From the NCBI GenBank assembly GCA_051876105.1, contig JBJEHN010000073.1, positions 4,555-68,554 on the forward strand: 64,000 nt of DNA. The letters run 5' to 3'. The notes beneath the pieces were generated by a model. The model was not told the origin of the DNA. It made no database searches and worked only from the letters and a program-made list of their open reading frames with translations. The translations under genes were made by a program, and so were the position numbers. Numbering within the stretch: the first letter of the stretch is position 1; every line of letters starts with the position of its first letter. Source of the DNA: Coriobacteriales bacterium (lineage in GTDB: Bacteria; Actinomycetota; Coriobacteriia; Coriobacteriales; QAMH01). Below are positions 14,735-31,758 of the stretch, in pieces.

Positions 14735-16036
14735 CTAGGATGCGCGCAGCACCCCCGTCACAGCGCCGCAGCTCAGGCGCTCGCGCGTCACGGGGCACCC
14801 GTCTGCGAGCACGTAGCCGTCGAGCAGCTCGAGCAGGGGCGTGACGACGAAGTCGCGCTCCAGCAGCCGGGGGTGCGGCAGGGTGAGCTGGGGGCTGGCG
14901 CTGGTGACGCCCTCGTAGTCGAGGATGTCGAGGTCGAGGGTGCGCGGGCCGTTCGGCTCAAGGCGCAGCCTCCCCTGCCCGTCCTCGATTGCGTGGAGCA
15001 ACTCGAGCAGCTCGGAGGGACCGAGGGTGGTCTCGAGCACGGCCACCGCGTTGGCAAAGGGGGCCTGGTCCTCCTTGTAGGCGGGCTCGCTTTCCACATA
15101 GGAGCTCACGGAGTAGACCCACACGCCGGGCGAGCGCCTCAAGGCAGCGACGGCGGCGTCGAGCTGGGCACAGCGCTCCCCGATGTTGGAACCCAGGGCG
15201 ATCACGGCCCGTTTGGACTCGGCAAAGGCGCGCGCGGTGGCGGCCACGTCGTGCACGCGGGCCACGATCGCTCCTTCGCGGCAGGCGGCTGCGGCGCACA
15301 GGGCGCTCGCGGCGTCGCGCTCGCGGGGGACCTCAATGCCCGTCGCCGCGCCGATGTAGCTCTTGCGGCTCACGGCAACCATGAGCGGGTAGCCGAGCTG
15401 TGCGAGCTGGCGGGTGTGCGATATGAGCGCTTGGTTGTGCTCGAAGGTCTTGCCAAAGCCCGGACCGGGGTCGATGCAGATGCGCTCGGCCTCGACGCCC
15501 GCTTCCTCGAGCAGGCGCGCCTGCTGCACCAGGTAGCTGCCCACCTCAGCGACCACATCGCCATAGCGGGGGTCGTCTTGCATGGTGCCGGGCTCGCCGA
15601 GCATGTGCATCACAACCACGCCGCAGCTGCTGCGGGCGACGAGCTCGCGCATGCGGCTGTCCCTGAAGCCGGAGACGTCGTTGATGATGTGGGCCCCCGC
15701 CTCGAGGCAGGCCTGGGCGACCTCCCAGTGACGGGTGTCGACGCTCACGCACGCGCCGCGCCCGACCAGCGCGCGCACAACCGGCAGCACGCGGGCGAGC
15801 TCCTCGTCTGTGCCCGGTGCCGCCGAGCCGGGGCGCGTCGACTCCCCACCGACGTCGATGATGTCGGCGCCCTCCGCGATCATGCGCTCGGCATGGGCAA
15901 GCGCCTGCTCCAAGCCGTTGTGGAGCCCGCCGTCGCTGAAGGAGTCGGGGGTGACGTTGAGGACCCCCATGATGTAGGAGCCGCAAGGGAACTCGAAGCC
16001 GCCGCACTTCCACATGGCCGCGCACACCTCCTGCAT
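14735..16036 (-). CDS. folP: Bifunctional dihydropteroate synthase / HPPK (FolP-FolK fusion)
   Basis: 433 aa. The N-terminal part has IMGVLNVTPDSFSDGG...RVHDV (FolP). This is joined directly to AVIALGSNIGERCAQLD...LDLDILDYEG...LTLPHPRLLERDFVVTPL (FolK). No FolB segment lies between them. Confidence 0.9.
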   Translation of the reverse strand: MQEVCAAMWKCGGFEFPCGSYIMGVLNVTPDSFSDGGLHNGLEQALAHAERMIAEGADIIDVGGESTRPGSAAPGTDEELARVLPVVRALVGRGACVSVDTRHWEVAQACLEAGAHIINDVSGFRDSRMRELVARSSCGVVVMHMLGEPGTMQDDPRYGDVVAEVGSYLVQQARLLEEAGVEAERICIDPGPGFGKTFEHNQALISHTRQLAQLGYPLMVAVSRKSYIGAATGIEVPRERDAASALCAAAACREGAIVARVHDVAATARAFAESKRAVIALGSNIGERCAQLDAAVAALRRSPGVWVYSVSSYVESEPAYKEDQAPFANAVAVLETTLGPSELLELLHAIEDGQGRLRLEPNGPRTLDLDILDYEGVTSASPQLTLPHPRLLERDFVVTPLLELLDGYVLADGCPVTRERLSCGAVTGVLRAS

Positions 16037-16042
16037 CGGGCG

Positions 16043-16609
16043 CTAGCGGCCCTGGGTGATGAGGCGCATGGCCTCGGCACGGGTGCGGTCGCTGCTCTGG
16101 AAGGTGCCGCGCACGGCGGATGTGGTGGTTTTGGAACCGGGCTTCTTCACGCCGCGCATGGTCATGCACATGTGCTCGCACTCCATGACGACCATCGCGC
16201 CCAGGGGCTTCATGTAGCGCACCAGGGCGTCTGCCACCTGGCTGGTGAGGCGCTCCTGCACCTGCGCGCGGCGGGCATAGAGGTCCACCAAGCGCGCGAG
16301 CTTGGAGATGCCGCAGACGCGGCCGGACTCGTTGGGGATGTAGGCCACGTGCGCCACGCCGTAGAAGGGCACGAGGTGGTGCTCGCAGATGCTGTAGACG
16401 GGGATGTCGTGGACGATGACCATCTCCTGGTGGCCCTCGTCGAAGGTGGTGGCGAAGAGCTCGGCCGGGTCCTGGCTCATGCCGGCGAGGATCTCCTCGT
16501 ACATGCGCGCCACACGCGCGGGGGTGTCGACGAGGCCGGGGCGGGTGGGGTCCTCCCCCACACCCTCGAGGATCAGGCGGACGCCCTCTTCGATCTTTGC
16601 GTGGTCCAT
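16043..16609 (-). CDS. folE: GTP cyclohydrolase I
   Basis: 188 aa with [10 protein letters not shown] and MCMTMRGV motifs. Confidence 0.95.
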
Positions 16610-16666
16610 GCGGTGGTTCTCCTAACGTTGTGCCTACCGGGCCATGATAGCCCAGCGCAAACGGCA

Positions 16667-16686
16667 GCGGCCCCGAGCGGGGCCGC
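16667..16686 (-). terminator. Hairpin after ftsH (weak U-tract)
   Basis: GCGGCCCC-GAGC-GGGGCCGC, followed on the minus strand by TGCCGTTTGCG. Confidence 0.4.
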
Positions 16687-16702
16687 CGGCGCGGTTGTCT
16701 TG

Positions 16703-18787
<2,085 letters not shown>

Positions 18788-18832
18788 GCTGATGGTTCTC
18801 CTCGGAGTAGTGGGTGCGGGGGATGTGGGCGC

Positions 18833-19372
18833 CTAGGCCAGGTAGACCCTGGGATCGAGGACGCCCACGTAGGGCAGGTTGCGGTAGCGCTCCGCGTAGT
18901 CGAGGCCGTAGCCCACCAGGTACTCGTCCGGGCAGGCGAAGCCGGTGTACTTGCACTCGACGGCGGCCTTCTGCGCCCCCTCCTTGACGAGGAAGGCGGC
19001 CACCTCGATGCTCTTGGGGTTGCGGCTCTTGAGCATCTTGACGACGTAGTTGAGCGTGAGGCCGGAGTCTAGGACGTCTTCTGCGATGAGGACGTGGCGG
19101 CCCTCAACGGGGGTGTTGAGGTCCTTGATGACGCGGACCACGCCGCTGGACTCGTGGGAGCTGCCGTAGGAGCTGACGGCCATGAAGTCCATCTCGACCG
19201 GAAGGTCGATGGCGCGGACGAGGTCTGCCATGAAGATGGCAGCGCCCTTGAGGACGCTCACGACGAGCAGCTGCTCGCCCTGGTAGTCGGCGGTGATGCG
19301 GGCGCCCAGCTCGGCGACCTTACCGCTGATCTGCTCCCGGGTGATCAGGACCCTCTGGACATCCTCGTTCAT
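18833..19372 (-). CDS. hpt: Hypoxanthine phosphoribosyltransferase
   Basis: MNEDVQRVLITREQISGKVAELG...; PRPP motif VLIAEDVLDSGLTL. ATG 19372 has AAGGAG 7 nt upstream. Confidence 0.93.
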   Translation of the reverse strand: MNEDVQRVLITREQISGKVAELGARITADYQGEQLLVVSVLKGAAIFMADLVRAIDLPVEMDFMAVSSYGSSHESSGVVRVIKDLNTPVEGRHVLIAEDVLDSGLTLNYVVKMLKSRNPKSIEVAAFLVKEGAQKAAVECKYTGFACPDEYLVGYGLDYAERYRNLPYVGVLDPRVYLA

Positions 19373-19450
19373 TGGACAACTCCTTACTGTCACGACATCC
19401 GCCGATTGTCTCACACCTTGGGCAGCGCCCCACAGCAATCGCGGGAATCG

Positions 19451-20482
19451 TCAACGTATGGAAATGCAGAGCTCCCCCTCGCGGCCCTGGGCGCGCAGGC
19501 CGCCGTCGAGCTCGGTGGTGAAGGGGCGGCCCTGGGCGATGCCGTCGACCACGCGCTGGATCTGGCGCGACTCCAGGCGCGCCTGCGGGCTGACGACGAG
19601 CATGCTCTGCCTCACCACGCGGCGCAGCATGGGCTCGTCGAGCCCCCGCAAGGCGGCGAGGGGCAGGCGGGCCGCCCCGTCGTCCCACAAGAGGTTGCGG
19701 TAGACGAGCGCCGCAGCCGCCGAGGAGAGGGCCTCGTCCTCCTGGGCGATGAGGTCCATGGTACGTGCGAGGCTGCGCTGGAAGCCCGGCTTGAGGGCCT
19801 CCATCACCGGGACGAGCTGCGTGCGCACCCTGCTGCGGAAGTTGCTGCCGTCCCCGTTGGTAGCGTCCTCGCACCACAGCTGGGCGGGGGTAGCGCCGGG
19901 GTGCAGCTCGAGCAGCAGCTCGCGCAGCTCCTGGCGGGTGGCGTCAAGCAGGGGGCGCACGATGCTCCCGCGCCTGCGCGGGATGCTGCCCAGGCCGCCG
20001 GGCCCGGTGCCCACCATCGCGCGCATGAGGAAAGTCTCGACGCGGTCGTCGAGGGTGTGGGCCGTGAGGACGAGGCCATCTTGCAGCGGGGTGCGGCAGC
20101 GGGCGCAGTGCCGCTCGAGCGCCTGGGCGGCCGCCTCGTAGCGCAGCTCGCGCGCCGCCGCCTCCATGCCGGCGGCGCCCTCCCCCACCCGGGCGGCCAC
20201 GTCGACGCGGCTCAGCTCGAACGGGACGCCCAGCTGGCGGCACTGCCGTTCGACGAAGGCCTGGTCGCGCTCGGAGTCCTCGCCGCGCAGCTGGTGGTTC
20301 ACATGTAGGCACAGCGGCAGCAGCTGGGCCCGGGGAGGCAGGCAGGCGCACAGCATGGCGCGCAGGCGCTCCTCGAGGGGGCCCGCGGGCGCGGTGCCGG
20401 CAGCGGCGCGGGCGCAGAGCTCCAGCAGCGCCGTCGAGTCGGAGCCGCCGGAGACCATGAGGATGAGGGGTGCGGTGTCCAT
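19451..20482 (-). CDS. tilS: tRNA(Ile)-lysidine synthetase
   Basis: 343 aa with the PP-loop MVSGGSDSTALL. It sits upstream of hpt-ftsH, the usual arrangement. Confidence 0.9.
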   Translation of the reverse strand: MDTAPLILMVSGGSDSTALLELCARAAAGTAPAGPLEERLRAMLCACLPPRAQLLPLCLHVNHQLRGEDSERDQAFVERQCRQLGVPFELSRVDVAARVGEGAAGMEAAARELRYEAAAQALERHCARCRTPLQDGLVLTAHTLDDRVETFLMRAMVGTGPGGLGSIPRRRGSIVRPLLDATRQELRELLLELHPGATPAQLWCEDATNGDGSNFRSRVRTQLVPVMEALKPGFQRSLARTMDLIAQEDEALSSAAAALVYRNLLWDDGAARLPLAALRGLDEPMLRRVVRQSMLVVSPQARLESRQIQRVVDGIAQGRPFTTELDGGLRAQGREGELCISIR

Positions 20483-20515
20483 GCGCCGATTATAGGGCCG
20501 CTGCGGCCGGCAGCC

Positions 20516-22846
20516 CTACGCGGGGTCCTTGCTGCGCAGGGGCATGTGGGCGATCACGTCTGCGTCGAGGCCGGTGAAGAGGCCCTCCTCGTAGAGGTCG
20601 ACGGCACAGCTCGCGATCATGGTGGCGTTGTCCGTGCAGGCGTGGGCATCCGGCATCACTACGCGTACCCCGCGGCGGCCGAGCTTGTCGGCGAGTGCGG
20701 CGCGCAGGGCGGGGTTGCTCGCCACGCCGCCGCCCATGCAGAGCGTGCGGCAGCCCGTTTCCTTGCATGCCTGCCAGGCCTTGTGCACCTGCACATCCAC
20801 GACAGCCGCCTGGAAGCTCGCAGCCAGGTCGGGGATGTTCACCGGCTCGCCCGCGGCGTTCCTCTTGTTGATGTAGGTGACCACTGCCGTCTTGAGCCCG
20901 CTGAGCGAGAAGCGCAGATCGCCGCTGTGCATCATCGCGCGCGGGAAGTCGATGGCCTGCGGGTCGCCCTGCGCGGCCAGGCGGCTGATGATGGGGCCGC
21001 CTGGGTAGCCCAGTCCCAGGGCCTTGGCAACCTTGTCGAAGGCCTCCCCCACCGCGTCGTCGAGGGTCGAGCCCAAGACGGCATAGTCGCCCCACTCCCT
21101 CACGTGCACGAGCATGGTGTGCCCGCCGCTCACCAGCAGGGCGATGAAGGGGGTCTGGATGTCCGGCGCCACGTAGCGGTTGGCGTAGAGGTGGCCCTCC
21201 AGGTGGTTCACCCCGATGAGCGGCAGCCCGGTGGCAAAGCACAGCCCCTTGGCAAAGGCCAGGCCCACCACCAGCGCGCCCACGAGGCCGGGACCCTGGG
21301 TCACCGCCACGGCGGAGAGGTCCTCCCAGCGCGCGCCGGCCTGCCCCATCGCGTCCATCACCACAGGGACGATGGCCTCGGTGTGCTTGCGCGAGGCGAT
21401 CTCCGGCACGACGCCGCCAAAGCGGCTGTGGAAGTCGATCTGGCTGGCCACCTGGTCTGCCCAGATGCGGCGCTCTCCGTCGACGACGGCCGCGGCGGTC
21501 TCGTCGCAAGAGCTCTCGATAGCCAGGATGAGGGGGCGGGCCGAGGCCGCGCAGGCACCCGCCTGCGCACGCGGGCCGCCGCCGGTCTCCATGCGCGCGC
21601 TGGCCCCTGAGGTGGCATAGCTGTAGGTCAAGGGCAGCTGGCCGCGCATGATCAGGGCGTCTGCGCGGTCGTGGTAGTAGCGGGGGCGCACCCCCACGTC
21701 CTCCAGGCCCAGCCGGTGGTAGAGCGCGATGGCAGGGGCGTTGTCTGTGCGGACCTCGAGGGTCACCGTCTCCGCACCTAAGGCGCGGGCGTCTGTGGCC
21801 ACGCGCTCGATCAGGCGCTGGGCGATGCCTTGGCGGCGCTGGGCCGGGTCGACGCAGATGCTGAAGATGCAGAGCTCTCCATCGACCACCTGGCCGCCGG
21901 CACAGCCAACGAGACGCCCCTCCTTGCGGGCGACCCACCAGCTGCGGTCCGGGCGGCCGACCTCGTCAGCCAGCTTGCCCTCCGTCCAGGCGTCCTGCGG
22001 CATCGCGCGCTGCTGGAGCCCGACCGCGGCAGCGACGTCGTTCACCGAGAGCGGGTGCAGGAAGAGGCCTCCCACGGCGCGGCCGTCTGCCACGCCGCTT
22101 TCGGGCAGGGCGTCTGCGATGCCCAGCCGCGCGCGTTCCGCCTCCTCGGCGTCGGAGAGGCGCGTATAGACAGGCAGCAGGACCGCCGGGTCCCCGCTGC
22201 CCAGCTCGCCGGCGCGGCGCAGGGCCGCATAGGCCTGCAGCAGGCCCTGGCCGTCGGGCGTCCACAGCTCCTCGGGGCCGATCGTGAAGGGGCCCTCCCC
22301 AAAGCATTCCGCGTGCTTGCGCAGGCCGTCGCCCAACAGCACCAGCTCCTCGCCGGCCTCGCGCCACGCCTGCGCGACCTGCGCAGGCTTGCAGACGCTG
22401 TCGAGGTCGAGGCGGCTGACGCCCTCGTCATCCAGCTCGAAGCGCACCGGGTAGACCTCCTTGCGCATGGCGTCCTCGACGACGCCCACGCGGCCGCGCA
22501 GGCCGGCGCGCCAGGCATGCCAGGCCACAGCGTCGATGGTCGACACGCCGTGGACGGGGCAGCCCAGGCCACAGGCGAGCCCCTTGGCTGTGGCGATGCC
22601 GATGCGCACGCCGGTGAACGAGCCCGGCCCCCTGCCCACGACGACCACCCCGACGTCGCGCGGGGCCAGGCCGCTGCTCTCCAGCAGCGCAGCTGCCCTG
22701 TCGAGGAGGACCTGGTCGGACTGGCGCGGCGCAGGTGCGTCGCCGCTGGCGATGACGCGGGGGTCGCTGGGCGCCACATCGCCCACGCAGAGGGCGAGCA
22801 TGTCGCTGGCGGTGTCGAAGGCCAGCGCGATCTTAGCTTGGGTCAC
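20516..22846 (-). CDS. tsaD: Triple fusion: TsaB (YeaZ) + RimI-type GNAT acetyltransferase + TsaD (Kae1/Gcp), for t6A biosynthesis
   Basis: One 776-aa ORF. Residues 1-240 are TsaB-like (GRGPGSFTGVRIGIATAKG). Residues about 258-405 are GNAT (QRRQGIAQRLIE..TLEVRTDNAPAIALYHRLG). Residues about 437-776 are TsaD (LAIESSCDETAAAVV, GVNHLEGH, GGGVASN). Confidence 0.9.
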   Translation of the reverse strand: MTQAKIALAFDTASDMLALCVGDVAPSDPRVIASGDAPAPRQSDQVLLDRAAALLESSGLAPRDVGVVVVGRGPGSFTGVRIGIATAKGLACGLGCPVHGVSTIDAVAWHAWRAGLRGRVGVVEDAMRKEVYPVRFELDDEGVSRLDLDSVCKPAQVAQAWREAGEELVLLGDGLRKHAECFGEGPFTIGPEELWTPDGQGLLQAYAALRRAGELGSGDPAVLLPVYTRLSDAEEAERARLGIADALPESGVADGRAVGGLFLHPLSVNDVAAAVGLQQRAMPQDAWTEGKLADEVGRPDRSWWVARKEGRLVGCAGGQVVDGELCIFSICVDPAQRRQGIAQRLIERVATDARALGAETVTLEVRTDNAPAIALYHRLGLEDVGVRPRYYHDRADALIMRGQLPLTYSYATSGASARMETGGGPRAQAGACAASARPLILAIESSCDETAAAVVDGERRIWADQVASQIDFHSRFGGVVPEIASRKHTEAIVPVVMDAMGQAGARWEDLSAVAVTQGPGLVGALVVGLAFAKGLCFATGLPLIGVNHLEGHLYANRYVAPDIQTPFIALLVSGGHTMLVHVREWGDYAVLGSTLDDAVGEAFDKVAKALGLGYPGGPIISRLAAQGDPQAIDFPRAMMHSGDLRFSLSGLKTAVVTYINKRNAAGEPVNIPDLAASFQAAVVDVQVHKAWQACKETGCRTLCMGGGVASNPALRAALADKLGRRGVRVVMPDAHACTDNATMIASCAVDLYEEGLFTGLDADVIAHMPLRSKDPA

Positions 22847-22852
22847 AGGGCA

Positions 22853-24133
22853 TCAGGCTCCAGAGAGGTCGGTGCGGATACTCATACCCTCGGTCAGGGA
22901 GGCGCCCTGGACGACCAGTTGGCCGTCTGGCGCGGTCCCGATCTGGGTCACGTTGCATTGCTTGACAGTAGCCGCGTCGACGACGGCCTCGACGTACATG
23001 CCGAAGCGGCCGTTGGCCACGGCTGTTGCGGGAACGTAGTATACCGTCCCGTAGTCGAGGACGCTGATCTTGGCAGAGACCGCCATGCCCAGCTCGAGGC
23101 CCTGGGGCGCCTCGTCGAAGGCCAGCGTCACGCCGTAGAGCGTCCCGTTGCCGGCGGCGTCCCCCATCACCGCGCTGCTAGAGCTGCCAGCGGAGCTCTT
23201 GGCCGTGGGCGTGTCAGCCACCTTGAGGACGCTTGCCGCGAGCACCTGCCCGGGCAGGGCGCTGCAGGTGACGCTTGCGAGCTGGCCCTTGCTGATGCTG
23301 CCCACCTTCGACTCGGGCACCTGCACCACGCAGTTGACCTTGGCGGTGTCCACCACTGTCATCAGCGTCCCCGCTGTAGCGGGGTACAGCTGCTGGCCGG
23401 GCTCAACCTGCAGACCCGCGACGGTGCCCCCTTGGGGCGCGGTCACGGCCAGCTTGCCCTGCTCGCGCTTTGCCTTGGTGAAGGCAGAGCGCGCCTTGGC
23501 GGTGTCCTTCTCCGCCTTGGAGAGCGCCGCCTCCTGCTGGCTGGCTACCGCCTGGGCGTCGTCGACGGCAGCCTGGGCGCTCTCGACGGCCTCCTGGTAG
23601 GGAGTCTCGTCGAAGGGCTCATCGGGCCGCTGCGCGGCGGTGTCGCGGGCGGCCTCGAGGTTGCCCTGGGCCTTCTCGAGCCGCTCGGCAGCCCCTGCAA
23701 GCGCCTCCTGCGCCGCAGCGAGCGCGTCTTGCGCCTCGCGCTGGGCGGCCTGGCACGCACGGTAGTCGGCCAGGGCCTCCGCCAGCGCCTGGCTCACCGC
23801 CTCGTTCTCGAGCGTGAGCAGCAGGTCGCCCTTCTTGACGGCATCGCCTTCCGCAACCTCGACGGAGAGGACGGTCCCCTCCACCTCGACGCAAACAGCC
23901 GAGACGCTGGCAGACTGGATCGCGCCGGTGACGTCGAGGTCGCTGGAGTAGCTGCTCGCGGCAAGGAGCATGGTGTCGTACTGCGCGGCAGGGCGGCTCT
24001 GGTTGGCAGAGAGCGTCTTGGTGAGCAGGTATGAGCCGCCCCCGAAGATGAGGACGGCGGCGGCGATGGCGATCCCAGCCGCCAAGCCGACCTGGCGGTT
24101 GCGAGCGCGGATCTTCTCGCGGGATGCTGGCAT
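22853..24133 (-). CDS. HlyD/membrane-fusion-protein family adaptor (periplasmic adaptor subunit), with no adjacent transporter
   Basis: 426 aa: N-terminal TM segment, lipoyl-like VEVAEGDAVKKGDLLLTL, a long Ala/Gln/Glu coiled coil, and beta-barrel-like C-terminal domains. It ends 6 nt before the tsaB-rimI-tsaD start. Confidence 0.8.
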   Translation of the reverse strand: MPASREKIRARNRQVGLAAGIAIAAAVLIFGGGSYLLTKTLSANQSRPAAQYDTMLLAASSYSSDLDVTGAIQSASVSAVCVEVEGTVLSVEVAEGDAVKKGDLLLTLENEAVSQALAEALADYRACQAAQREAQDALAAAQEALAGAAERLEKAQGNLEAARDTAAQRPDEPFDETPYQEAVESAQAAVDDAQAVASQQEAALSKAEKDTAKARSAFTKAKREQGKLAVTAPQGGTVAGLQVEPGQQLYPATAGTLMTVVDTAKVNCVVQVPESKVGSISKGQLASVTCSALPGQVLAASVLKVADTPTAKSSAGSSSSAVMGDAAGNGTLYGVTLAFDEAPQGLELGMAVSAKISVLDYGTVYYVPATAVANGRFGMYVEAVVDAATVKQCNVTQIGTAPDGQLVVQGASLTEGMSIRTDLSGA

Positions 24134-24185
24134 GTGCCCCTCCAGGTGAAGAATGCGTACCCGTGGATTCTAGGGCATGGGGCGC

Positions 24186-24929
24186 CTAAGCGGTGCCGGC
24201 GGCAAAGGGGGCGCCCTGGCTGCTGCTGGAGGAGGAGCCCTGCTGGCCCTGGTTGGGGGATCCCTGTTCCTGGGTGGAGCCCTGCGTGCCGCCCTGGGAG
24301 CCGCTGCCGGAGTAGACCTGGCTGTAGCTGCTGTTGGGCCCGGAGCTCTGGCTGTAGTACACCGGTGTGTAGAAGAGCCGCGTGCAGGCCCCCATGAAGA
24401 GGTTGATCAGGAGATTGAGCGCCAGGAAGGCGATGATCCAGGTCATGCAGCCGCCGCCGAAGACCGTGGTCTGCTGGCGCTGCTGCTGTTGGCGCTGGTA
24501 CTGCTGTTGCTGCTGGCTGCGCTGCTGTTCGTAGTAGCTCGAGTCGTGCTGGGAGCCCTGGTTGCCGTACCAGCTGCGGAAGAACTCCTCGAAGGGGTCG
24601 TAGTACTCCCCCTGGCCCGAGCCGCCGGAGCGGGTGTAGCGGCCGGTGGTGGGGTCGTAGGTGTAGGTCTGGGTGTTGGCATAGCCGCCAGAGCTCTGCT
24701 GGGCATAGGGGTTGGATGCCTGCTGGCGCGCGCGGGGGCCGTACGGGGTGCCGTTGGTGATGGCGTCGTAGGCGGCGTTGACCTCGGCCATCTTCCTGGC
24801 GGCTGCCTCGTCGCCGGGGTTGAGGTCGGGGTGGTACTTCTTTGCCAGCTTGCGGTACGCGCGGGTCACCTCGTCCTTCGAGGCGCCCTCGTTCAAGCCC
24901 AGGACCTTGTAGGGGTTTGTCTCTGCCAT
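24186..24929 (-). CDS. Membrane-anchored J-domain (DnaJ-like) protein with Q/S/G/Y-rich low-complexity regions
   Basis: 247 aa: [36 protein letters not shown] (HPD motif), a Q-rich stretch ([15 protein letters not shown]), one TM segment ([20 protein letters not shown]), and an S/G/Q-rich tail. Confidence 0.85.
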
Positions 24930-25001
24930 AGTGGTTCCCTATCTTACAGGGATTGCTTGAAGATTGGCTGAATGCCGCTCAACATGACGGCAACAGCTGC
25001 C

Positions 25002-25418
25002 CTAGCTCAGCGTTACGAGGCGCGAGCCGTCGTCGCGCACGCGCACGTCCACATAGCGGCAGCCTGACGGCAGGGCGTCGGGGAACTTGTCGCCCCACTC
25101 CACCAGGCTCACCGCCCCGCTCTCCGTAAGGCCGTACCAGTCGACGTCCTCGAGCTCCCACTCGCTCTCCAGGCGGTAGAGGTCCCAGTGCAGCAGCGGG
25201 AGCCGGCCGCTGTCGTAGCGCTCGACGATGGCGAAAGTGGGGCTCGTGACCTGCTCGGTCACGCCGAGCCCCTCGGCAAAGCCCTTCGAGAGGTGCGTCT
25301 TGCCGGCCCCGAGGTCGCCGGTGAGCACAAAGCAGCTGTCTGGCGCCGCCTCGAGCGCCAGGCGGCGCCCCAGCTCTATGGTCTCCTCGACGCTGTTGGA
25401 GATGAATGTCTCACCCAT
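25002..25418 (-). CDS. tsaE: tRNA t6A ATPase TsaE
   Basis: P-loop GDLGAGKTHLSKG and HWDLYRL. ATG 25418 has GAGGAG 7 nt upstream and overlaps the udg stop by 8 nt. Confidence 0.9.
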   Translation of the reverse strand: MGETFISNSVEETIELGRRLALEAAPDSCFVLTGDLGAGKTHLSKGFAEGLGVTEQVTSPTFAIVERYDSGRLPLLHWDLYRLESEWELEDVDWYGLTESGAVSLVEWGDKFPDALPSGCRYVDVRVRDDGSRLVTLS

Positions 25419-26007
25419 CGGCGCGCTCCTCACCCCCGCCGGCGGAGAGCTTGGCATCGCGCTCGAGCAGGGCGCGCAGCAGGTCGAAGTCCTCCTCCAA
25501 AGCGGCGACCTTGGAGCGATCGTAGATCGCTGCCGCCGGGTGGAACATGGGGATCACCCGCAAGGGGCCGGCGCTCTGCACGCGGCCGCGCAGGCGGGTG
25601 ATCCCCTCGTTGGTCTGCAGGATGAACTTGGTGGCGAAGTTGCCCAGGGTCACGACGACGGTGGGGTGCACGCTGGCAACCTGCTGGCGCAGCCAGGGCG
25701 TGCACGCCTCTATCTCCTCCGGGCGCGGGTCGCGGTTGCCCGGCGGGCGGCACTTGAGGATGTTGGCGATGTAGATGTCCTCGCGCGGGATGCCGGCGCG
25801 CTGGAGCATCTGGTTGAGCAGCTGGCCGGCCGCGCCCACGAAGGGCTCGCCCTGCAGGTCCTCGTTCTTGCCAGGGCCCTCGCCTACGAACATCACGTTG
25901 GCATGGGGGTTTCCCACGCCGAAGACGAGGTTGGTGCGCGTGGCGGCGAGCGCGCACTTGGCGCAGCCCGCGCACTCGCGCTCTATGTCTGCGAGGGGGC
26001 GCGGCAT
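25411..26007 (-). CDS. udg: Family-4 uracil-DNA glycosylase (4Fe-4S)
   Basis: 198 aa from MPRPLADIERECAGCAKCALAATRTNLVFGVGNPHANVMFVGEGPG..., with HPAA near the C-terminus. Its ATG overlaps the alr TGA. Confidence 0.9.
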   Translation of the reverse strand: MPRPLADIERECAGCAKCALAATRTNLVFGVGNPHANVMFVGEGPGKNEDLQGEPFVGAAGQLLNQMLQRAGIPREDIYIANILKCRPPGNRDPRPEEIEACTPWLRQQVASVHPTVVVTLGNFATKFILQTNEGITRLRGRVQSAGPLRVIPMFHPAAAIYDRSKVAALEEDFDLLRALLERDAKLSAGGGEERADG

Positions 26008-27323
26008 CAGACGTACACCCTGGGCAGGCGCAGGCCGAAGAGGCAGGTTATCTCGTGGGTGATCGTGCCCAGGGCCTCGGCCATGGTGTCTGCCGTGAGC
26101 TCGTAGTCGCCCTGGGTGCCGATGATGACGACCTCGTCGCCCGGCTGGGCGCCGCCGCCCTTGATGCCCGTCACGGAGTAGCCCAAGGGGATCTCGATCA
26201 TCATCTGGTCCATGCAGATGTTGCCCACCTGGCTCACCGGGCGGCCGTTCCACAGCACCTTGAAGCCCTTCTTGGTGAGCTCTCGCCTGACACCATCTGC
26301 GTAGCCGAGCGGCAGGGTGGCGATCTGCACGGGCTTGCCCACGCGGTAGTTCATGCCGTAGCTCACGCCCTCGCCCACCTGGGGCTCCTTGACGGCGGAG
26401 ATCTCTGCCTTGATGCTCATGGCCGGCTTGAGGACGACGCTGCCGCCGGAGACCTCGGGGTTGTAGTCGAGGCCGTAGAGGCAGATGCCCAGGCGCACCA
26501 TGTCGTAGTGCACCTGCGGGTAGCGGAAGATCGAGGCGCTGTTGGCGGCATGGACGATGCCGGGGTTGAAGCCCGCCTCGCGGATGAGGCGCAGGGCCTC
26601 CTCGAAGCGGCGGTGCTGCTCGTAGAAGTCGAGCTGCTCGGCGCAGTCGGCGGTGGCGAAATGCGTGAAGGTACCCTCGTACTTGAGCGCCCTGTGGAAC
26701 GAGATGCCCTTGATGAAGTCGCCCGCATCCAGGTAGAAGACGCCGATGCGGTTCATGCCGGTGTTCACCGCCAGGTGGAAGGGGGCCTCCCTGCCCTGGA
26801 GGTCTGCCTGCTCGGCGTAGTCGAGGGCGAACTCCTGGGTGTAGACGGCGGGGGTGATGCTGTAGGCCAGCAGCAGCGGGATGGTGCGCTGCGGGGGCTG
26901 GGCCAGCAGGAGGATGGGCTCTGTGAAGCCGGCCTGGCGCAGCTCGACGCCCTCTTCCGGGGTGGCCACAGCAAGGCGGTCGGCACCGGCGTCGAGTGCG
27001 GCGCGCGCAACGCGGACGGCACCGTGGCCGTAGGCGTCTGCCTTGACGACGGCGCAGAGCAGGCGCTGCGGGCCGCAGGCGCGGCGGGCCTGCTGCACGT
27101 TGAACGCGATGGCGGAGAGGTCGATCTCTGCCCAGGCGCCGCGCGGGACGCTCTGGCGGGTGTAGGAGTCGTGGAGCGTGACGCTGGGCGCGCTCGCAGC
27201 CCGCTCGACCTCAGCCCCCAAGGTGAGCTGGGTGTCTCCAGCACTGTCGAAGGGCCTGTCCCCTGCCGCTGTGTCGTTGGGCAGCTTGGGGTTGGAGCCG
27301 AAGTAGTTGATGGAATCAGTCAT
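26007..27323 (-). CDS. alr: Alanine racemase (with about 60-aa N-terminal extension)
   Basis: VVKADAYGHG (PLP lysine) and the typical C-terminal ..VCMDQMMI... block. The start MTDSINYF at 27323 overlaps the nnrD stop by 8 nt. Confidence 0.92.
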   Translation of the reverse strand: MTDSINYFGSNPKLPNDTAAGDRPFDSAGDTQLTLGAEVERAASAPSVTLHDSYTRQSVPRGAWAEIDLSAIAFNVQQARRACGPQRLLCAVVKADAYGHGAVRVARAALDAGADRLAVATPEEGVELRQAGFTEPILLLAQPPQRTIPLLLAYSITPAVYTQEFALDYAEQADLQGREAPFHLAVNTGMNRIGVFYLDAGDFIKGISFHRALKYEGTFTHFATADCAEQLDFYEQHRRFEEALRLIREAGFNPGIVHAANSASIFRYPQVHYDMVRLGICLYGLDYNPEVSGGSVVLKPAMSIKAEISAVKEPQVGEGVSYGMNYRVGKPVQIATLPLGYADGVRRELTKKGFKVLWNGRPVSQVGNICMDQMMIEIPLGYSVTGIKGGGAQPGDEVVIIGTQGDYELTADTMAEALGTITHEITCLFGLRLPRVYV

Positions 27324-28293
27324 GCTCGTCCTCTTTTGCCTTGTTGCTTCCAGTCCCGCAGGCGCGTTGCAGTGCACCGGAGCGAGCGGCCGCCAAACGC
27401 GGCGAGAGCTCCTCCAGGCTGCACGCGGCACGCCCGATCCTTGCTATCAGGTCCTCTGGCATGACGCCGGGCACTCCCAGCTCGGCGGCGGCCAGCGCTC
27501 CGCTGCGCCCATGAAGATACACCCCAAGGCAGGCTGCGTCCACGTCGCGCAGGCCCTGAGCGCAAAACGCAGCGATCATGCCCGCTAGCACATCGCCGGT
27601 GCCGGCCTTCGCGAGCTCCGGGCCGGCGTTGCGGCACACCAGCAGGCTGCCGTCCGGGGCCGCCACCAGGGTCTGCGGGCCCTTGAGCACCGCGATGGCG
27701 CCATAGCGGCGTGCGAGCTCCCTGGCCGCGTCCTCGCGCGGGCCCAGCGCGCCGCCCAGCAGGCGTGCGGCCTCGCCCTCGTGCGGGGTGAGCAGCGTGC
27801 GGCACCCGCCCGCACGGCGCGCGTCCAGCAGCCCGGGGCTGCAGGCGAGCGCGAAGAGCGCGTCTGCGTCGAGCAGCAGGGGCAGGCCCATCAGCGCCGG
27901 GCTGCCCGCCACGGCGCGCACGAAGGCCGCGCACTCCGCCGTGCGGCCGATGCCCGGCCCCAGCAGCAGGGCTTTGGCCCGCGGGGCGCGCGCCTCCAGC
28001 TCGTCCAGCGCTGCAGCGGCAAAGCAGCCCCCCTCCTGGGCGCAGGGCACCACGGGAATGCTCAGCAGGTGTGCGCGGGCATCGTGAACGGCGGGCTCCG
28101 GGGTCAGCAGGGTCACGTAGCCGGCCCCGCTGCGCGCTGCGGCCTGGGCTGCGAGCACCGCTGCGCCCGGGTAGGCCCCAGAGCCTGCAGCTGCCAGCAC
28201 CTGGCCCGCGCTGTACTTGTTGGCGTCTGCGGCGGGCAGGGGCAGCAGCCCGGCCGCATCGCAGGCCGTGAACTCGCGTGGAGGAGCTGCCAT
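27316..28293 (-). CDS. nnrD: ADP-dependent NAD(P)H-hydrate dehydratase (YjeF C-terminal type)
   Basis: 325 aa with KYSAGQVL..GSGAYPGAAVLA, GPGIG, LTPHEGE and AKAGTGDVLAG motifs. There is no N-terminal epimerase domain. Confidence 0.88.
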   Translation of the reverse strand: MAAPPREFTACDAAGLLPLPAADANKYSAGQVLAAAGSGAYPGAAVLAAQAAARSGAGYVTLLTPEPAVHDARAHLLSIPVVPCAQEGGCFAAAALDELEARAPRAKALLLGPGIGRTAECAAFVRAVAGSPALMGLPLLLDADALFALACSPGLLDARRAGGCRTLLTPHEGEAARLLGGALGPREDAARELARRYGAIAVLKGPQTLVAAPDGSLLVCRNAGPELAKAGTGDVLAGMIAAFCAQGLRDVDAACLGVYLHGRSGALAAAELGVPGVMPEDLIARIGRAACSLEELSPRLAAARSGALQRACGTGSNKAKEDEHD

Positions 28294-28294
28294 G

Positions 28295-28864
28295 CTAGGC
28301 GCCCTCCCCGCCTGCGGGCTCGGCTGGTGCCGGGGCGTCGAGCTCGTCGAGCATGCCGCGCAGCTCCTTGAAGGCAGAGGCGATCTGGCGCTTCTGGCTA
28401 TTGCCCTGCTCGGGCGGGGCGGGCTTGGTGTCCTCGCGTGTGGCGATGGCGTTTGCCACCGCCGTGCCGTGGGTGCGGCTTAACGACACGGGGATCTCCA
28501 GGACACCCATCTCCTGAGCGATCTGCCGCGCGCGGTTGTGCAGCAGCACCACCGGCTTGCCGCGGTCGTTGTGGGTGACCTCAACGTCCGCGAAGCCCAC
28601 GCCGCTGCCAAAGCCGGTGCCGAGCGCCTTGACCACCGCCTCCTTGGCAGCGAAGTGCGTGGCGTAGTGCACGGCGGGATTGTGCTTGGCATCGCAGTAG
28701 GCGCGCTCGCCCTCGGTGAAGACCTTCCTCGCAAAGGCAGGGCTGCGCTGCAGTATCGCCTCCATGCGGGGGATCTCCACGATGTCGACGCCGAGCCCCG
28801 CGATGGGGACGGTTGGCTGCGTTTGGGGCGCCTCGTTCAGCTCTTGGGGTTCTTCAACGCTCAT
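28295..28864 (-). CDS. acpS: Holo-[acyl-carrier-protein] synthase with N- and C-terminal extensions
   Basis: GLGVDIVEIPRM...HFAAKEAVVKALGTG...SLSRTHGTAVANA. About 45 extra C-terminal residues. Confidence 0.9.
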   Translation of the reverse strand: MSVEEPQELNEAPQTQPTVPIAGLGVDIVEIPRMEAILQRSPAFARKVFTEGERAYCDAKHNPAVHYATHFAAKEAVVKALGTGFGSGVGFADVEVTHNDRGKPVVLLHNRARQIAQEMGVLEIPVSLSRTHGTAVANAIATREDTKPAPPEQGNSQKRQIASAFKELRGMLDELDAPAPAEPAGGEGA

Positions 28865-28867
28865 GTC

Positions 28868-30694
<1,827 letters not shown>

Positions 30695-30842
30695 AGAGGC
30701 GCTCCTTCTTGTGGATTTGCGTACCGAACGATTTTACCCGCAGGCACAGCCCGCTGGCCTCAGAGCCCGCCGCAGGGTGCCAGCGGTGGCAATGCAGCGC
30801 CCGCGAAGCGAAGGCGGCCCGAAAACCGCCTCGCTCATTGCA

Positions 30843-30893
30843 AAGAATGGGACAGTGGGGACAGTCCCCACTGTCCCCCACTGTCCCATTCTT
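30843..30893. repeat. Palindromic repeat element, copy 1 (variant with an internal 10-nt duplication)
   Basis: AAGAATGGGACAGTGGGGACAGTCCCCACTGTCC[CCCACTGTCC]CATTCTT. It shares a 32-nt core, AATGGGACAGTGGGGACAGTCCCCACTGTCCC, with the copy at 62779-62819. It lies between the rpmA terminator and the glmS upstream region. Confidence 0.85.
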
Positions 30894-30902
30894 CGGGGAC
30901 CA

Positions 30903-30929
30903 AATGAAAAGACCCCCGTGCGGGGGCCC
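30903..30929 (-). terminator. Rho-independent terminator after rplU-rpmA
   Basis: The minus strand reads GGGCCCCCGCACGGGGGTCTTTTCATTT (5-6-bp G/C stem followed by a T-tract), about 27 nt after the rpmA stop. Confidence 0.6.
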
Positions 30930-30955
30930 TTCCATTGCTATGTCGCCAAGAGGCT

Positions 30956-31210
30956 TTAGGCCTCTGCGGGGATGACGTGCACGCGACGCTTGTCGCCGCG
31001 GGTGTACTTGACGGTGCCGTCTGCCAGGGCGAACAGGGTGTCGTCCTTGCCGCGGCCCACGTTCTCACCGGGGTGGAAGTGGGTGCCGTGCTGGCGGACC
31101 AGGATCATGCCGGTGGTGACGACCTCGCCGGCGAACTTCTTGCAGCCCAGACGCTGTGCGCGGGAGTCGCGACCGTTGCGAGTGGAGCCTAGACCCTTTT
31201 TATGTGCCAT
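30956..31210 (-). CDS. rpmA: 50S ribosomal protein L27
   Basis: [31 protein letters not shown]... Confidence 0.97.
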
Positions 31211-31230
31211 TGTCTTTCGCCTCCCTTACC

Positions 31231-31758
31231 TTAAGCGTTCTGGATGGTCTCGATGATCTCTGCCTTGCGGGCGGAGGAGGAAAGCTTGACGCCGCGCTCT
31301 GCTGCGAGCTCCTTGAGCTGGGCGACCGTCATCTTGTTCAGCTCTTCGACGGAGGGAAGGGCAGCGGCCTGAGCTGCGGGCTCTGCAGCGGCAGCGGGCT
31401 CTGCGGGGGCCTCTGCCTTTGCGGGCTTGGCAGCCTTGGGCTCGGCCTTGACGCCTGCGACCTCGGTGATGACGATCTTGGTGAGGTTCTGGCGATGGCC
31501 GCGGAGCTTCTTGTAGCCCTTGCGCTTCTTGAACTTGAAGATGATGGCCTTGGGGCCCTTGTGCTGGTCAACGATCTCTGCGGTGACGGTGGTCTGGGCG
31601 AGAGCGTCTGCATCGGTCACGACGTCGGTGCCGTTGTTGAGGAACAGGACGGGGAGCTGCACCTGGGTGCCAGCCTCGCCCTCGATCTTCTCAACGTCGA
31701 TGACGTCACCCGGCTTGACGGTGTACTGCTTGCCACCGGTTTTGATGATTGCGTACAT
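31231..31758 (-). CDS. rplU: 50S ribosomal protein L21 with a C-terminal A/P/K-rich linker and a SAP/Rho_N-like helix-extended-helix module
   Basis: MYAIIKTGGKQYTVKPGDVIDVEKI... is the L21 core (about 100 aa). About 75 further residues end in LNKMTVAQLKELAAERGVKLSSSARKAEIIETIQ. I chose ATG 31758; the track uses TTG 31776. Confidence 0.93.
   Translation of the reverse strand: MYAIIKTGGKQYTVKPGDVIDVEKIEGEAGTQVQLPVLFLNNGTDVVTDADALAQTTVTAEIVDQHKGPKAIIFKFKKRKGYKKLRGHRQNLTKIVITEVAGVKAEPKAAKPAKAEAPAEPAAAAEPAAQAAALPSVEELNKMTVAQLKELAAERGVKLSSSARKAEIIETIQNA

Follow-up and report, generated by a model that had tools for sequence, protein, structure and literature searches.

The window, a 64-kb stretch of DNA from an uncultured Coriobacteriales bacterium, contains in its ORF listing one unbroken reading frame, tsaB::rimI::tsaD, which starts with GTG, encodes 776 aa and occupies positions 20516..22846, stop codon included. 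The frame lies on the minus strand, a detail absent from the original prediction made for this DNA. It was characterised by profile matches, codon GC and start context: third-position GC is 0.91, similar to that of the genes beside it, a GGAG motif lies 12 nt 5' of the GTG, and the stop codon of the upstream gene is 7 nt from this start. As judged from the DNA alone, the product would be one polypeptide of about 82 kDa.

One ORF with three modules had been predicted, and this was borne out, with each module scoring above the curated NCBIfam cut-off and apparently intact. Pfam domain calls agree with NCBIfam on TsaB, RimI and TsaD, and the module boundaries first proposed (residues 1-240, ~258-405 and ~437-776) are correct to within a few residues. 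The TsaB (YeaZ) module covers aa 1-241 (22124..22846, minus strand, as are all features described below). Profile TIGR03725 matches it at aa 8-229 with 207.3 bits against a cut-off of 69.3, and Foldseek aligned its model with the E. coli and Salmonella YeaZ chains 1OKJ, 2GEL and 4YDU_C at target-normalised TM scores of 0.84-0.88. The module includes a conserved C-terminal helix (PVYTRLSDAEE), and its motif GRGPGSFTGVRIG is invariant in the alignment of homologues. At the other end of the chain, aa 438-776 (20516..21535) form the TsaD (YgjD/Kae1) catalytic module, matched by TIGR03723 at aa 440-751 (438.3 bits; cut-off 296.1). Its model has the bilobal ASKHA fold, with target-normalised TM scores of 0.90-0.92 and rmsd values of 2.6-2.9 A against 4YDU and 4WQ5 (Foldseek). 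His548, His552 and Asp739 correspond to the metal triad His111/His115/Asp300 (HxxxH...D) of E. coli TsaD (4YDU_A) and are invariant in the 44 aligned sequences. The triad is intact, and a t6A transferase function is predicted for this module.

Between them, aa 262-404 (21635..22063) constitute a RimI-type GNAT acetyltransferase. TIGR01575 matches this module at aa 273-400 with 103.2 bits (cut-off 86.4), and it can be aligned to E. coli RimI (5ISV) and Salmonella RimI (2CNM). The acetyl-CoA motif (R/Q-x-x-G-x-G/A) reads R337-R-Q-G340-I-A342, and the catalytic residues of the Salmonella enzyme in published structure work, Glu103 and Tyr115, have Glu364 and Tyr376 as their counterparts in the alignment. 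Both residues are retained in 38/40 triple fusions over a wide divergence, a conservation that shows that in most lineages RimI activity is under purifying selection; the fused position could matter as well. The module is most likely a working N-terminal acetyltransferase, with bS18 as the target expected by orthology. The gene for bS18 is absent from the 64-kb window, and no second GNAT gene, tsaC or sua5 was found in it.

The original prediction described the connecting segments as Ala/Gly/Ser linkers, a description that suits the second linker only. Linker 2 (aa 405-437; 21536..21634), with the sequence LPLTYSYATSGASARMETGGGPRAQAGACAASAR when taken from about aa 404 to 437, is indeed rich in Ala, Gly and Ser. 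Linker 1 (aa 242-261; 22064..22123) reads GIADALPESGVADGRAVGG over about aa 242-260 and is instead a mixture of Ala, Gly and Asp. AlphaFold2 predicted residues 231-259, which overlap the end of the TsaB module, and residues 410-423 to be disordered (pLDDT <50). Linker 1 differs in length and sequence between homologues, and linker 2 is the most variable segment of the chain, with 28-95 residues across homologues.

The fusion belongs to a co-directional array of genes. Upstream lies tsaE (25002..25457), which encodes the ATPase subunit of the t6A complex (TIGR00150, 107.7 bits; cut-off 60.1) as a separate gene; almost every related locus likewise has tsaE on this side of the fusion. Further upstream is alr, for alanine racemase (26007..27431; TIGR00492, 327 bits). 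The Alr domain covers aa 99-474 of the annotated ORF, whose true start is probably internal. This gene is the first of the actinobacterial alr-tsaE-tsaB-rimI-tsaD cluster; an alr-groEL1 operon has been described in M. tuberculosis (PMC5335608). Genes for a UDG-family protein, a J-domain protein (24186-24929) and an HlyD/membrane-fusion-like protein (22853-24133) are interposed, the last two as a pair (22853..24929) between tsaE and the fusion that is found in this sub-lineage only. With alr and tsaE upstream, the order is that of the M. tuberculosis alr-tsaE-tsaB-rimI-tsaD operon, but the fusion is followed by tilS-hpt-ftsH and not by the groES-groEL of the actinobacterial alr-tsaE-tsaB-rimI-tsaD(-groES-groEL) operon, which is found at that place beside a 621-aa relative discussed below. 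A scan for promoters and terminators from glmS to folE gave nothing informative, its sole convincing hairpin being located after rpmA.

In a genome scan, the frame was open over the whole match in 28 other loci (L001-L007, L009-L025, L028, L030, L032 and L040), of which L001-L007 and L009-L025 are mostly from Coriobacteriia. The best match (L001) is a Coriobacteriales metagenome-assembled genome, PUUB41_bin.032, with a protein 93% identical to the one studied here. Isolates with the fusion include Collinsella tanakaei YIT 12063, C. vaginalis, C. ureilytica and Collinsella sp. An307 and An7, and the fusion is also found in assemblies of Raoultibacter, Eggerthellaceae and Atopobiaceae. The architecture was also surveyed among 1.84 billion cluster representatives, with local profile-based domain calling, and among the best 150 representatives of clusters at 50% identity, about 36 are triple fusions. 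Judged by these genomes and clusters, the triple fusion is the rule throughout the class Coriobacteriia and not a rarity. In Acidimicrobiia, on the other hand, TsaB, RimI and TsaD are encoded by three separate, overlapping ORFs (e.g., L043).

Three loci, L037, L038 and L039, have other arrangements. We considered them as evolutionary intermediates, with either TsaB apart from RimI-TsaD or TsaB-RimI apart from TsaD, and rejected this for L038 and L039, given that domain mapping places the frame breaks of these two within TsaB and RimI themselves; a triple fusion with assembly frameshifts, or one that has become a pseudogene, is the more likely explanation. From its gene arrangement, L037 may be a true TsaB + RimI-TsaD combination, the only one of the three.

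The nearest sister lineage encodes a 621-aa protein in which TsaB is fused to TsaD and the RimI module is gone. The 621-aa proteins are 62% identical to the fusion studied here in TsaB and 76% in TsaD, above the Collinsella-type triple fusions (about 50-57%), and their loci have the same lineage-specific insertion of a J-domain and a membrane-fusion-like gene. No rimI was found within 8 kb of these genes. A weak remnant of the RimI N-terminus is detectable in the 621-aa proteins (6.0-6.7 bits; the highest score among 500 shuffled sequences was 5.1). The 621-aa form appears, from these sequence comparisons, to derive from the triple fusion through an internal deletion of RimI. In two other lineages (P0028 and P0032), the catalytic Glu and/or Tyr of RimI has been lost, while TsaB and TsaD are still well conserved. 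Since one lineage lost RimI and kept TsaB joined to TsaD, and two lost the catalytic residues of RimI, our data suggest that the tether between TsaB and TsaD matters more than RimI.

Structure prediction is in agreement with a pairing of the two outer modules. AlphaFold2 gave a mean pLDDT of 84.9 and a pTM of 0.74 for the 776-aa fusion, and a pTM of 0.88 for the RimI-less 621-aa relative. TsaD makes up 44% of the former chain and 55% of the latter, and the two pTM values would be out of reach if TsaD alone were the largest rigid unit, which fits a pairing of TsaB with TsaD in the chain. The Foldseek matches against the PDB are single-chain matches, and what they confirm is the fold of each module. 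The intramolecular pairing, for which structure prediction had been proposed as a check, is suggested but not proved by pTM values too high for independently tumbling modules. The linker lengths would agree equally well with a domain-swapped dimer, in which the TsaB of one chain is bound to the TsaD of another. As the original prediction stated, the fusion fixes TsaB and TsaD at 1:1, which follows from the covalent link.

We consider it probable that this is a vertically inherited fusion of Coriobacteriia that holds the TsaB-TsaD core in one chain and carries RimI as a passenger. The starting point would have been the actinobacterial operon genes tsaB, rimI and tsaD, whose ends overlap in Acidimicrobiia, and the loss of two intervening stop codons would have produced one reading frame. 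In the protein, the chain would bend back so that the N-terminal TsaB meets the C-terminal TsaD and the two make up the heterodimer at the core of the bacterial tRNA threonylcarbamoyltransferase for t6A37, a pairing to which the AlphaFold pTM values and the conserved interface helices point. In the bacterial TsaBDE system, a separate TsaE ATPase and TsaC or Sua5 complete the t6A pathway; here, the same would be achieved by the TsaE encoded at 25002-25457 and by a TsaC or Sua5 encoded elsewhere. RimI, placed between two disordered linkers, would be a co-expressed passenger, trapped when the genes on both sides were fused and not obligatory for the t6A reaction. The covalent tether between TsaB and TsaD, which would guarantee both 1:1 stoichiometry and assembly, survives where RimI is lost or decays.

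A different explanation is that RimI is a working component of t6A synthesis, acetylating the complex, TsaE or a bound substrate, or coupling the pathway to acetyl-CoA, and that the fusion was selected for this coupling. We regard it as unlikely. The synthesis of t6A has been reconstituted with TsaC, TsaB, TsaD and TsaE, without RimI, in other bacteria, which counts against such a role. The catalytic residues kept in nearly all triple fusions speak in its favor, as do the repeated adjacency or fusion of rimI with tsaB and tsaD in Gram-positive bacteria and the independent occurrence of TsaB-RimI and RimI-TsaD double fusions. Moreover, the RimI of M. tuberculosis acetylates an N-terminal peptide of TsaD and is reported to interact with TsaD and, weakly, with TsaB (PMC4926160; PMC5335608). 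The same enzyme, however, left folded TsaB-TsaD unacetylated in vitro (PMC4926160), and the TsaD N-terminus acetylated in vitro is no longer a free end in the fusion. The sister lineage without RimI has TsaB and TsaD still fused in identical synteny, two lineages have degenerate catalytic residues, the linkers that lead to RimI are disordered and highly variable, and pTM falls from 0.88 without RimI to 0.74 with it. The original prediction that the fusion places RimI physically inside the t6A machinery is weakened by the same RimI-deleted, RimI-degenerate, linker and acetylation data.

A functional coupling of RimI to the t6A core, in which RimI would, for example, sense acetyl-CoA or acetylate TsaE, the N-terminus of the fusion or a partner associated with the ribosome, seems to us distinctly improbable. 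If it were true, the RimI deletions would be compensated changes and not neutral losses, and the Coriobacteriia would provide a natural test series for the long-unexplained linkage of rimI to the t6A genes.

It is also very unlikely that the frame is a polyprotein, yielding separate TsaB, RimI and TsaD through internal initiation or proteolysis of the linkers, in which case the fusion would make no difference to the proteins themselves. Disorder is predicted for both linkers, which would make them open to proteases, and linker 2 contains a methionine, M419, that some homologues share (in GMEL or RMET). Nevertheless, M419 is missing from many other homologues and is not conserved, and our search for a Shine-Dalgarno-like motif paired with an in-frame start codon at the module junctions found none at either; such pairs exist only within the folded modules. 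The linkers have no conserved cleavage motif over their range of lengths in homologues, and the frame is kept open class-wide, which would be unnecessary if separate products were wanted. As for the possibility that two collapsed frameshifts or lost stops falsely joined three adjacent genes during sequencing or assembly, the contig is GC-rich (68-72%), metagenome-assembled genomes do carry indel errors and the breaks in L038 and L039 resemble such errors in the opposite direction, but an artefact or chance is excluded by the frame that is open over the whole match in the 28 other loci, which come from independent assemblies with isolate genomes among them, and the same architecture is shared by dozens of protein clusters, the most distant at about 40-50% identity, with linkers that are in frame and conserved in their start and end, so that this explanation is, on comparative grounds, already refuted in practice.

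The vertically inherited fusion with RimI as passenger can be compared with several known systems. The fusion is real and already known: it is the norm for a class, is present in public annotation and was reported in 2013, when a yeaZ::rimI::ygjD "triple fusion" was described in Coriobacterium glomerans (Oberto, SyntTax, BMC Bioinformatics 14:4, PMC3571937). That fusion has the same module order in one ORF, belongs to the same class and has alr and tsaE (yjeE) upstream; the present one comes from a different genus, and its sub-lineage has two extra genes between tsaE and the fusion. An association of RimI with the YgjD complex had also been inferred earlier (PMC3571937; PMC4926160; PMC5335608). 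The linkage of rimI to the t6A genes was called near-universal in the original prediction, which is wrong: the tsaB, rimI and tsaD genes are dispersed in most bacterial phyla (PMC3571937), and about 20% of genomes show a conserved rimI-t6A gene context (PMC4926160). Of the refuting outcome named in the original prediction, an architecture both common and already characterised, only the first half applies: the architecture is common and has been described, but our literature search turned up no biochemical work on the triple fusion, which is unmentioned in both a 2022 review of t6A (PMC9654439) and the paper on TsaN (PMC10484737).

Both outer modules score as equivalogs of the stand-alone TsaB-TsaD heterodimer or TsaB2D2E2 complex (E. 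coli 4YDU, Salmonella 3ZET, T. maritima 6N9A and 6S84). The predicted folds (TM 0.84-0.92), the metal triad, the interface-helix motifs and the separate TsaE are all kept, whereas the fusion is covalent, with a 143-residue GNAT domain and two linkers in between. The TsaB-RimI fusions of M. leprae, Bordetella and Achromobacter involve the same operon genes with only two modules joined. RimI-TsaD fusions likewise join two of the three, and so does the 621-aa TsaB-TsaD protein of the sister lineage. Archaeal Kae1-Bud32 (MJ1130, 2VWB, 3EN9) and the Pandoravirus TsaN (TsaD-TsaC-SUA5-TcdA, 8IDE) are further cases in which Kae1 or TsaD is covalently linked to another member of the t6A pathway. In both of these, the linked partner has been shown to act in the reaction; RimI has no such demonstrated role.

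The NCBI annotation names the fusion proteins as TsaD only, and such labels from annotation pipelines conceal that Coriobacteriia genomes also encode TsaB and RimI functions. Structural and enzymological studies of the bacterial t6A complex could find a convenient object in a TsaB-TsaD that is a single chain by nature. Moreover, the graded series formed by separate genes in Acidimicrobiia, the triple fusion, the degenerate RimI and the deleted RimI could test the role of RimI directly; the evidence gathered here points to a RimI without an obligatory role in t6A synthesis.

The minus strand of the window carries, at 20516-22846, an uninterrupted ORF of 776 aa with a GTG start, in which TsaB, RimI and TsaD modules follow one another. 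All three exceeded the curated cut-offs of the NCBIfam equivalog models, that is, TIGR03725 for TsaB (aa 8-229; 207.3 bits, cut-off 69.3), TIGR01575 for RimI (aa 273-400; 103.2 bits, cut-off 86.4) and TIGR03723 for TsaD (aa 440-751; 438.3 bits, cut-off 296.1). Because the ORF call, NCBIfam and the consistent Pfam calls match them, the coordinates, length and module boundaries given in the original prediction are correct. GC by codon position (GC3 0.91, GC2 0.50) is like that of the real genes adjoining, and the start codon has a GGAG 12 nt ahead of it. His548 and His552 of the TsaD module align with His111 and His115 of E. coli TsaD (4YDU_A), an alignment that also places Asp739 inside the CTDN motif, and these three residues are invariant in 44/44 aligned sequences. 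The RimI module was aligned with Salmonella and E. coli RimI (2CNM, 5ISV); its Glu364 and Tyr376 match Glu103 and Tyr115 of the Salmonella enzyme, and the acetyl-CoA motif is R337-x-x-G340-x-A342. The sequence determinants of TsaD, TsaB and RimI are present as a complete set in a single frame.

In t6A synthesis, TsaC produces threonylcarbamoyl-AMP, transfer of the threonylcarbamoyl group to A37 is the work of TsaD, which TsaB holds, and the ATPase activity of TsaE resets the complex. We consider it likely that the fusion arose from an overlapping tsaB-rimI-tsaD operon by loss of stop codons, that TsaB and TsaD would pair within the chain, fixing their stoichiometry at 1:1, and that RimI, a co-expressed passenger, would keep working as an acetyltransferase in its own right. 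In the Acidimicrobiia loci (L043 and others), TsaB, RimI and TsaD are encoded by three separate, slightly overlapping ORFs.

The AlphaFold2 model of the fusion, based on a 44-sequence alignment, had a mean pLDDT of 84.9 and a pTM of 0.74, with residues 231-259 and 410-423 disordered. Compared with crystal chains, target-normalised TM was 0.90-0.92 for the TsaD module and 0.84-0.88 for the TsaB module. A RimI-less relative of 621 aa reached a pTM of 0.88. Such values would be out of reach with TsaD alone as the largest rigid unit (44% of the chain in the fusion, 55% in the 621-aa form), from which we infer that the two modules probably pair inside one chain. Pairing between chains, as a domain-swapped dimer, is a possible alternative. 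That pTM is lower for the chain with RimI (0.74) than for the one lacking it (0.88) is in keeping with a flexible tether for this module.

The large 621-aa family (P0091 and others; 6001-7848 in L029 and L031, 8001-9866 in L067-L069) consists of direct TsaB-TsaD fusions with a linker of ~45 residues and no GNAT domain. It is 62% identical to the window's fusion in TsaB and 76% in TsaD, compared with ~50-57% for triple fusions of the Collinsella or Eggerthellaceae type. Synteny is identical (rpmA, glmS, acpS, NAD(P)HX dehydratase, alr, UDG, tsaE, J-domain, HlyD-like, fusion) and includes the J-domain and HlyD-like insertion specific to the window's sub-lineage. The linker also gives a weak match to the N-terminal portion (positions 15-47) of a RimI profile that excludes the 621-aa sequences (6.0-6.7 bits, against a maximum of 5.1 bits in 500 shuffled controls). 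Together, the identity, synteny, common insertion and profile remnant suggest that the 621-aa form arose from a triple fusion by secondary internal deletion of RimI, keeping the TsaB-TsaD bond. No rimI was found within 8 kb of the 621-aa fusion, and groES-groEL lies downstream of it in this sister lineage. Two triple fusions have a shortened RimI module, P0028 (locus L007) with the catalytic Glu replaced by His and Tyr by Cys, and P0032 with Tyr replaced by Cys. Since their TsaB and TsaD modules stay well conserved (64-76% identity to the query) while catalytic residues are gone, RimI appears to be decaying in place.

These lineages bear on the interpretation in the original prediction, which made RimI a functional part of the t6A machinery and its linkage to the t6A genes near-universal. 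This interpretation holds in part: the fusion and its intact modules stand, but a near-universal linkage does not, as t6A and rimI genes are dispersed in most phyla (PMC3571937) and the rimI context is kept in ~20% of genomes (PMC4926160). Recurrent linkage and fusion with t6A genes, conserved catalytic residues and interaction data from M. tuberculosis speak for a role of RimI in the machinery. Even so, with RimI deleted or degenerate in some lineages, the linkers disordered, the fusion lacking a free TsaD N-terminus and folded TsaB-TsaD not acetylated by M. tuberculosis RimI, we regard such a role as rather unlikely. Still less probable is a polyprotein cut or split into separate TsaB, RimI and TsaD products; scanning the fusion ORF revealed no Shine-Dalgarno-like motif with an in-frame start codon at either module junction.

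That assembly error created the single ORF can be dismissed almost entirely. Searching GTDB at one genome per species gave 66 related loci, and in the 49 matching over most of the query, where reading frames were checked, one frame was open over the whole match in L001-L007, L009-L025, L028, L030, L032 and L040. Open frames occur in isolates (Collinsella tanakaei YIT 12063, C. vaginalis, C. ureilytica, Collinsella sp. An307 and An7) and in Raoultibacter, Eggerthellaceae and Atopobiaceae assemblies; the fusion is no artefact, and its prediction as one real ORF was borne out. As for split-gene arrangements, L038 and L039 have frame breaks inside domains that look like assembly frameshifts, and only L037 may truly have TsaB apart from a RimI-TsaD fusion. 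In L002, L005, L030, L040, L036 and L062, this typically coriobacterial fusion lies on contigs bearing the names of unrelated organisms, Akkermansia muciniphila, Agathobacter rectalis, Eubacterium sp. CAG:786, Prevotella sp. CAG:279 or Clostridiales bacterium, probably mis-binned or mislabelled metagenome bins.

A protein-database search returned dozens of full-length homologues (766-910 aa, identity down to ~50%) with the same Pfam set, labelled by NCBI as TsaD of Coriobacteriia. Among 1.84 billion 50%-identity cluster representatives, 4,319 proteins matched with E below 1e-30; local profiles called ~36 of the best 150 as TsaB-RimI-TsaD, ~10 as RimI-TsaD, 7 as TsaB-RimI, ~4 as TsaB-TsaD and the rest as plain TsaD. 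The triple fusion is therefore confined to one clade, yet standard there, being conserved across the class Coriobacteriia. It is also already known: the same module set is fused as yeaZ::rimI::ygjD in Coriobacterium glomerans (Oberto 2013, BMC Bioinformatics 14:4; PMC3571937), and TsaB-RimI fusions occur in M. leprae, Bordetella and Achromobacter (PMC3157347, PMC4926160). No biochemical work on the triple fusion came up in our literature search, and neither the 2022 t6A review nor the TsaN paper mentions it.

In the window, tsaE (25002-25457) is a separate gene upstream of the fusion, with genes for a J-domain protein (24186-24929, minus strand) and an HlyD/membrane-fusion-like protein (22853-24133, minus strand) between them; the stop codon of the latter is 7 nt from the fusion start codon. 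This pair is limited to the window's sub-lineage (L001-L007, L029, L031, L067-L069), and tsaE immediately precedes the fusion in Collinsella, Eggerthellaceae and Atopobiaceae. Farther upstream, alr is flanked by genes for NAD(P)HX dehydratase (27316-28293, minus strand) and a UDG-family protein (25411-26253, minus strand). Under the first-start rule the alr ORF is extended by ~98 aa at the N-terminus, and the UDG ORF runs into the alr end on one side and the tsaE start on the other, so the true start codons are probably internal. Downstream, a FolP-FolK fusion of 433 aa (14735-16036, minus strand) joins pterin-binding (dihydropteroate synthase) and HPPK domains in one ORF, adjoining folE (16043-16609). 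Between rpmA and glmS, a strong terminator-like hairpin (30849-30877, minus strand) has 13 pairs, of which 9 are G-C. No second site of this kind was found on the minus strand of the scanned region (16000-31500), in keeping with a long array of co-directional genes from glmS to folE.

Intact, degenerate and deleted forms of RimI within a single class make up a natural series, which could settle the question of rimI and t6A experimentally.
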